This document shows positions 32,508 to 33,193 of a stretch of 64,000 bases of DNA, one piece after another; position 1 is the stretch's first letter; each line of letters begins with the position of its first letter. This DNA comes from Enterobacteria phage ATK47. The position numbers and the translations under genes are program-made. The notes below the pieces were generated by a model. The model made no database searches, was not told the DNA's origin, and worked only from the letters and a program-made list of their open reading frames with translations. The DNA lies in sequence record NC_055708.1; one strand, written 5' to 3'.

Positions 32508-32738
32508 ATGTCTACTGAAACTATCGAAAAACTGCAGTCTGAAATCGTTACTCTGAAATCTCGCATTCTTGATACTCAAGACCAAGCAGCTGCTATCCAG
32601 CAAGAATCTCAGCAACTTGGTAGTGCTCTTGCTAAAATCGCTAATCTGGTTGGTATCACTGGTGAATCAGTTAAGATTGATGACCTGGTAGAAGCAGTAC
32701 GTGAACTTGTTAAAGCTGAAACCACAGAAGAAGAATAA
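32508..32738 (+). CDS. 57A: tail fibre assembly chaperone gp57A
   Basis: 76-aa helical protein ([16 protein letters not shown]) at T4 57A position. Confidence 0.8.
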
Positions 32739-33193
32739 TGAAATTTGAGGACTTTTCACAAGGCCTCTACGTCGCAGCTAAATTTTCGGAATTAACACTT
32801 GATGCGCTGGAAGACCTCCAGCGCAAATTAAGAATTCCTAATCCAGTACCACGTGAAAAGCTTCATTCAACAATTTGTTATTCACGTGTAAACATACCAT
32901 ATACTACATCTAGTGGTAGTTATTCTGTTGCCGAATCAGGACACTTTGAGGTATGGAAAACTGACGACGGCGCTGTACTGGTTTTAGTTCTTGATTCCGA
33001 ATATCTTAGATGTCGTCATCAGTATGCACGAGCTTTAGGTGCTACTCATGATTTCGACGACTACACTCCACATATAACGTTATCATATAACGTTGGCCAA
33101 CTATCATTCAGTGGTGATGTAGCTATTCCGGTTATTCTCGACCGTGAATACAAAGAACCCTTAAAACTAGATTGGGCCGAAGATCTAAAATAA
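32738..33193 (+). CDS. 57B: 2H phosphoesterase gp57B (Acb1, anti-CBASS nuclease in T4)
   Basis: 151 aa with two H-x-T/S motifs (HSTICYS, HITLSY) typical of 2H phosphoesterases; T4 57B position. Confidence 0.8.

Follow-up and report, generated by a model that had tools for sequence, protein, structure and literature searches.

The closest described system is that of phage T4, in which the product of gene 57B (NP_049750.1, from NC_000866) was named Acb1 by Hobbs et al. 2022 (PMC9117128) and is the founding member of its family. T4 Acb1 accounts for all of the 3'3'-cGAMP cleavage seen in infected lysates, and Acb1 cuts 3'3'-cGAMP, cUA, cAAA and cAAG, 3' of adenosine and without a metal; cGG, cA4 and 3'2'-cGAMP are not cleaved (PMC9117128). 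The catalytic HxT/HxT tetrad of the T4 enzyme is made up of H44, T46, H113 and T115, the aromatic residues Y12, W74, F107 and W147 stack on the bases, E141 contacts the N6 of adenine and residues 145-152 form a C-terminal lid (PMC9117128), which closes over the substrate in the Acb1 of Erwinia phage FBB1. Activity sets in at about 15 min of T4 infection, and T4 lacking acb1 plates on CBASS hosts with a defect of more than 300-fold and grows like the wild type where CBASS is absent (PMC9117128). All nine further, more distant homologs that were assayed cleave 3'3'-cGAMP and cAAA, and cA3-based type III CRISPR has been proposed as an additional target of T4 Acb1 (PMC9117128). A transposon screen in T4 found acb1 (57B) to be conditionally essential on a CBASS host, and insertions in 57B were tolerated on K-12. 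The enzyme also exposes the phage: type II Panoptes restricts Acb1-encoding Tevenvirinae by sensing the depletion of cA3, and escapers carry mutations in acb1. With type I Panoptes, plasmid-borne Acb1 is toxic, yet deletion of acb1 from T4 has no effect.

The window analysed here, a stretch of 64,000 nucleotides from Enterobacteria phage ATK47 (NC_055708.1), contains a counterpart of this gene (Table 1). We conclude with high confidence that the ORF is the Mosigvirus ortholog of T4 57B (acb1) and that its product is most likely an active 2H phosphodiesterase that needs no metal. The ORF has an ATG start, 151 codons and a TAA stop, and both 2H motifs can be read in it directly, just as had been described in the earlier note, whose identification of gene 57B as an Acb1 of the 2H phosphoesterase type is borne out by all of the sequence and structure tests that we ran. 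Antisense or overlapping ORFs of 30-40 aa inside acb1 are without support and were set aside.

Table 1. Positions in the window of the features discussed in the text.
Feature	Position	Strand	Evidence and remarks
T4 late-promoter consensus TATAAATA, inside gene 1	32146..32153	+	motif; 362 nt upstream of 57A ATG
Gene 57A, tail-fibre assembly chaperone, 76 aa, directly upstream of acb1	32508..32738	+	Pfam GP57 E=5.9e-23; phrog_1002
acb1 / gene 57B CDS, anti-CBASS 2H cyclic-oligonucleotide phosphodiesterase (activity by homology)	32738..33193	+	ORF; PF23474; 7T26; T4 NP_049750.1
First 2H motif HSTICYS, residues 43-49	32864..32884	+	read from sequence; H43/T45 = T4 H44/T46
Second 2H motif HITLSY, residues 112-117	33071..33088	+	read from sequence; H112/T114 = T4 H113/T115
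C-terminal segment, residues 140-151, with E140 (T4 E141) and lid W146 (T4 W147)	33155..33190	+	residue mapping; PMC9117128
ipI ortholog, internal protein I, directly downstream of acb1	33270..33557	+	88% identical to T4 IPI; PF11634 (IPI_T4) E=1.4e-50; ATK48 annotation
Two tRNA genes, tRNA-Met and tRNA-Arg per ATK48	35435-35586	+	Rfam; ATK48 annotation
Acb2/Vs.4 ortholog, 88 aa, cyclic-nucleotide sponge	47524-47790	+	~14 kb past acb1; 65.5% identical to T4 Vs.4

For the ATK47 gene, our analysis shows which gene it is, that the functional residues are conserved, what fold is predicted for the product, that synteny is kept and that selection is purifying. The product matches the Pfam family PF23474 (Acb1) over profile positions 1-144 of 144 (E=1.3e-58, 197.3 bits against a gathering cut-off of 27 bits) and the sequence of FBB1 Acb1 in the PDB entries 7T26 and 7T27 (E=1.1e-58), belongs with phrog_755 by its match to that group, and aligns without gaps to T4 gp57B (85% identical, 92% similar). 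A protein database search returned 85 cluster representatives, nearly all with PF23474 and many named 'Anti-CBASS protein Acb1' in UniRef, and tblastn located a homolog in 1468 phage records, near full length in 1460 of them. Over the 4 kb around acb1, identity is 100% with Enterobacteria phage ATK48 (KT184310; Straboviridae, Tevenvirinae, Mosigvirus) and 95-99% with about 125 other records of RB69-like coliphages and Shigella phages. The ATK48 gene is labelled 'hypothetical protein, similar to T4 AAD42501', and in phage Mizar, which is 97.6% identical, the nearly identical gene is annotated as 'anti-CBASS Acb1-like protein'. Acb1 is an already described gene in a well-studied phage group. We found no mention of an RB69 or Mosigvirus Acb1 in the papers on Acb1 (PMC9117128) and Panoptes (PMC12657218). 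Of two published PCR primers that flank acb1 (PMC13577387), one fits the window at 32397 with 2 mismatches and the other has at least 7.

The residues that bind and cleave the ligand in T4 Acb1 are all present. At the nine functional columns, ATK47 has Y11, H43, T45, W73, F106, H112, T114, E140 and W146, every one the same as in T4. We scored conservation on family alignments of 25 and 32 Acb1 sequences, in which the lowest identity is about 30%. The tyrosine, both histidines, both threonines and the glutamate are invariant in 25/25 sequences; the remaining aromatic columns hold only W/F or F/Y, the exceptions being one M at the column of T4 W74 and one L and two gaps at that of W147. The 32-sequence alignment agrees, with the tetrad invariant in 32/32. 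The catalytic histidines, on which the earlier note had staked its assignment, thus stand up in a proper alignment, where H43 and H112 fall on T4 H44 and H113. The ATK47 and T4 proteins differ by 22 substitutions; none of these lies at a known functional position, and several fall in the β-hairpin region 53-80, beside W73. Nei-Gojobori estimates of dN/dS are 0.064 against T4 (dN 0.126, with a dS of about 2 that is near saturation) and 0.047 against Mizar; by these low values, purifying selection maintains the protein in its present form. The gene is an intact copy, in an RB69-like (Mosigvirus) T4-type phage, of a member of a well characterised enzyme family.

We used the 32-sequence alignment to build an AlphaFold2 model, whose mean pLDDT is 88.9 and whose pTM is 0.82, with low confidence confined to residues 1-5 and 148-151; the drop at 148-151, the end of the lid, fits a flexible lid. 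The predicted model matches the compact 2H phosphoesterase fold of Acb1. In a Foldseek search of the PDB, its top match is 7T26 (TM 0.95, rmsd 1.0 Å), 7T27 is matched at a TM of 0.92, and the next rank is taken by the Acb1-type enzyme of Burkholderia phage BCSR5 (TM about 0.65-0.69). E. coli LigT and other 2H enzymes come below BCSR5, at TM 0.41-0.55 and rmsd 7-9 Å.

Taking the T4 and FBB1 enzymes as a guide, we propose a mechanism in which ATK47 Acb1 would bind cyclic di- and trinucleotides with at least one adenosine, by homology 3'3'-cGAMP, cUA, cAAA and cAAG. The ligand would sit in a U-shaped pocket, with its bases stacked by Y11, W73, F106 and W146; E140 would read the N6 of adenine, and the C-terminal lid would then shut over the ligand, which would be strained. 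The tetrad H43-x-T45 / H112-x-T114 is expected to carry out metal-independent acid-base catalysis in which the 2'-OH attacks the 3'-5' bond, giving a cyclic phosphate intermediate and from it a linear product with a 3'-phosphate. As we propose it, this linear product would be unable to activate CBASS effectors, so that abortive infection would not be triggered. It is thus by inference from its relatives that we ascribe to the ATK47 protein an enzymatic activity, a range of substrates, a time of expression and an anti-CBASS phenotype.

A different reading comes from the databases, in which phrog_755, T4 57B in RefSeq and many of its orthologs carry the description 'RNA ligase'. The protein would then be a LigT-like 2'-5' RNA ligase, or a 2',3'-cyclic phosphodiesterase whose substrates are the ends of RNA, as they would be in tRNA repair, for instance. 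The Pfam family 2_5_RNA_ligase2 (PF13563) does give a weak match (E=0.013), and LigT is among the Foldseek matches, which reflects the common fold of the 2H superfamily. The PF13563 match is, however, partial (residues 70-131) and scores 15.9 bits against a cut-off that is also 27 bits, compared to 197 bits for the Acb1 profile, and the LigT superposition given above is poor next to the 0.95 and 1.0 Å of Acb1. Moreover, the T4 protein, at 85% identity, has been shown biochemically to be a cyclic-oligonucleotide phosphodiesterase (PMC9117128), and the residues that stack on its substrate and the glutamate that reads adenine are kept in ATK47. We consider RNA-end chemistry highly improbable. With its profile sub-threshold and the structural match poor, the protein falls outside the LigT / 2'-5' RNA ligase family, and 'RNA ligase' is therefore a misnomer at the level of the superfamily; it was apparently assigned automatically at that level. 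The tight linkage to 57A, with its stop/start overlap conserved in T4, and the co-annotation of acb1 homologs with the tail-fibre chaperone in T4-like phages could suggest something else again, namely that the product works with gp57A in building the tail fibres, a connection to which it historically owes the name 57B, and that its 2H motifs are incidental. Such a role is hard to reconcile with the wild-type growth of T4 lacking acb1 on hosts without CBASS and with the transposon insertions tolerated in 57B on K-12. Across the Acb1 family, the tetrad and the residues that bind the ligand are invariant, a sign that it is the enzyme function that is under selection, and we regard a part in tail-fibre assembly as extremely improbable.

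A subtler question is whether the ATK47 enzyme, while an Acb1, differs from that of T4 in its substrate range or main target, acting mainly on cA3 (from type III CRISPR or another source) or having gained or lost specificities. The 22 differences from T4, several of them near W73 in the 53-80 hairpin, leave some room for this, and the cleavage of cAAA by T4 Acb1, the proposed countering of cA3-based type III CRISPR and the way in which type II Panoptes senses Acb1-encoding Tevenvirinae, from their depletion of cA3, all draw attention to cA3. Against it, every residue reported to contact a base or the scissile phosphate is identical to T4, and all nine of the more distant homologs have kept cleavage of both 3'3'-cGAMP and cAAA (PMC9117128). 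We judge a shifted target very unlikely, and in any case it would refine the Acb1 mechanism rather than displace it. We likewise give only a slim chance to a Mosigvirus-type Acb1 whose range has shifted to the cleavage of cGG or 3'2'-cGAMP, or to the sparing of Panoptes decoy nucleotides. If this were so, the shifted Acb1 together with Acb2/Vs.4 would give the lineage its own balance between evading CBASS and triggering Panoptes.

The arrangement of the locus gives some indication of how acb1 may be expressed. The TAA stop of 57A and the ATG of acb1 have one base in common (TAATG), and because of this overlap we regard co-transcription and translational coupling of the two genes as likely; acb1 is probably co-expressed with the chaperone gene. 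The 8-mer TATAAATA at 32146 may be a late promoter from which the 57A-acb1 message is made. It is a single motif, put forward on account of its positional conservation with T4, where the same motif lies 363 nt upstream of 57A. Motif and overlap together suggest a single late message for 57A and acb1, which would fit the onset of activity at ~15 min in T4 infection. A scan of 30500-34800 for sigma-70 promoters and terminators returned 14 promoter-like sites, with 13.9 expected from shuffled sequence; as this is the level of chance, we claim no promoter from it. An Rfam scan of 29000-40000 found only the two tRNAs (Table 1), and nothing that overlaps acb1.

The spacer between 57B and ipI contains, at 33215-33241 on the plus strand, a 10-bp hairpin (AGGAUGAUGG...CUAUCAUCCU; folding z-score -2.9). 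At the corresponding point, the T4 spacer has a 13-bp hairpin (z -3.6) whose sequence is different, which indicates that the pairing is kept despite the sequence change. The hairpin overlaps a promoter-like GTTTACA-N17-TACTAT upstream of ipI that is conserved in ATK47 and T4, and it is a candidate terminator, processing site or means of promoter occlusion.

The gene order 3-1-57A-57B-ipI, in which gene 1 encodes a dNMP kinase, is the same in the window, ATK48 and T4. The earlier note had argued that the presence of acb1 makes unknown neighbours more plausible as counter-defence candidates. This has partial support: the IPI ortholog lies downstream, but the upstream neighbours are the 57A chaperone, the gene 1 kinase and the gene 3 tail protein; since these upstream genes are structural or metabolic, adjacency to acb1 is in this case by itself weak evidence. 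The island argument is not new: the adjacency of acb1 to ipI, whose product inhibits GmrS/GmrD type IV restriction, was noted as an anti-defence island by Hobbs et al. 2022 (PMC9117128).

Beyond ipI, an ORF of 102 aa at 33621-33929 (plus strand) matches phrog_2667, 'internal head protein' (E=3.8e-41), has no Pfam family and is without annotation in the 100% identical ATK48. Its N-terminus, MKTFKEFINE, is of the internal-protein type, like those of the T4 internal proteins, and may be capsid-targeting. It is possible that the ORF encodes an injected anti-defence protein, and as judged from its sequence it is a reasonable candidate. It is followed, at 33999-34548 on the same strand, by two small conserved ORFs of 61 aa (phrog_1692) and 131 aa (phrog_1411), which according to the Mizar annotation are the counterparts of the T4 trna.4/trna.3 'segB-ipI intergenic' proteins.

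Other parts of the window depart further from T4. At the equivalent tRNA locus, T4 has eight tRNAs and segB, compared to the two tRNAs of ATK47. With tblastn, neither ipII nor ipIII of T4 finds a match within the 64,000-nt window, and the orthologs of e (lysozyme) and denV, which flank them in T4, are only ~340 nt apart (44349-45584, plus strand); on these grounds, the complement of internal proteins differs from that of T4. In the vs.5 region (47310-47534, plus strand), there is an ORF of 74 aa, compared to the 58 aa of T4 Vs.5, and T4 Vs.5 aligns here in two reading frames, at 47310-47363 and 47350-47478 (39.5% identity), which points either to a frameshift with respect to T4 or to replacement by a divergent sequence.

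The Acb2/Vs.4 ortholog matches PF24729 (Acb2_Tad1_hairpin, E=1.2e-17) and the PDB entry 7UQ2, 'Vs.4' (E=2.8e-30). With orthologs of both Acb1 and Acb2/Vs.4 in the window, the phage has both of the known anti-CBASS proteins of T4, the one that degrades and the one that sequesters. Together with IPI, they make ATK47 a Mosigvirus with the standard T4-type counter-defence set, which predicts resistance to many CBASS systems and possible sensitivity to guard systems of the Panoptes type that sense cyclic-nucleotide depletion. The finding of acb1 in ATK47 implies no new biology, and it is of use only in putting annotation right: the gene labelled 'hypothetical protein' in ATK48 or 'RNA ligase' in many RefSeq and PHROG entries is Acb1.

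Among the known systems, T4 is the nearest. Its Acb1 shows 85% identity from end to end, with the tetrad, the aromatics, E141 and the lid tryptophan all the same, and its gene likewise lies between 57A and ipI, with the same stop/start overlap with 57A and the late-promoter motif at the same offset. The two proteins differ in length, 152 aa in T4 compared to 151 in ATK47, which has one N-terminal residue fewer, and in the 22 substitutions; T4 belongs to Tequatrovirus and ATK47 to Mosigvirus. The FBB1 enzyme (7T26 apo, 7T27 with 3'3'-cGAMP) is ~61% identical and has the same tetrad and E140, but it carries F at the position of W73 of ATK47 and T4 and Y at that of F106, both of which are conservative changes. 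More distant is the phosphodiesterase of Burkholderia phage BCSR5 (9Q2G, 9Q2Y), which has the 2H fold, a lid that opens and closes and both HxT motifs; its sequence match to ATK47 Acb1 has E=0.007, but it is only ~16-18% identical, is longer (165 aa) and sits on a distant branch. E. coli LigT, the 2'-5' PDEs rotavirus VP3 and MHV ns2, and the poxvirus cGAMP PDE (9CIW) have the same 2H fold and His-x-Thr/Ser dyads, but with TM values of 0.4-0.55 and less than 20% identity, and their substrates are RNA ends, 2'-5' oligoadenylate and 2'3'-cGAMP. Those of them that are viral also degrade nucleotide signals of host immunity (PMC12064943).
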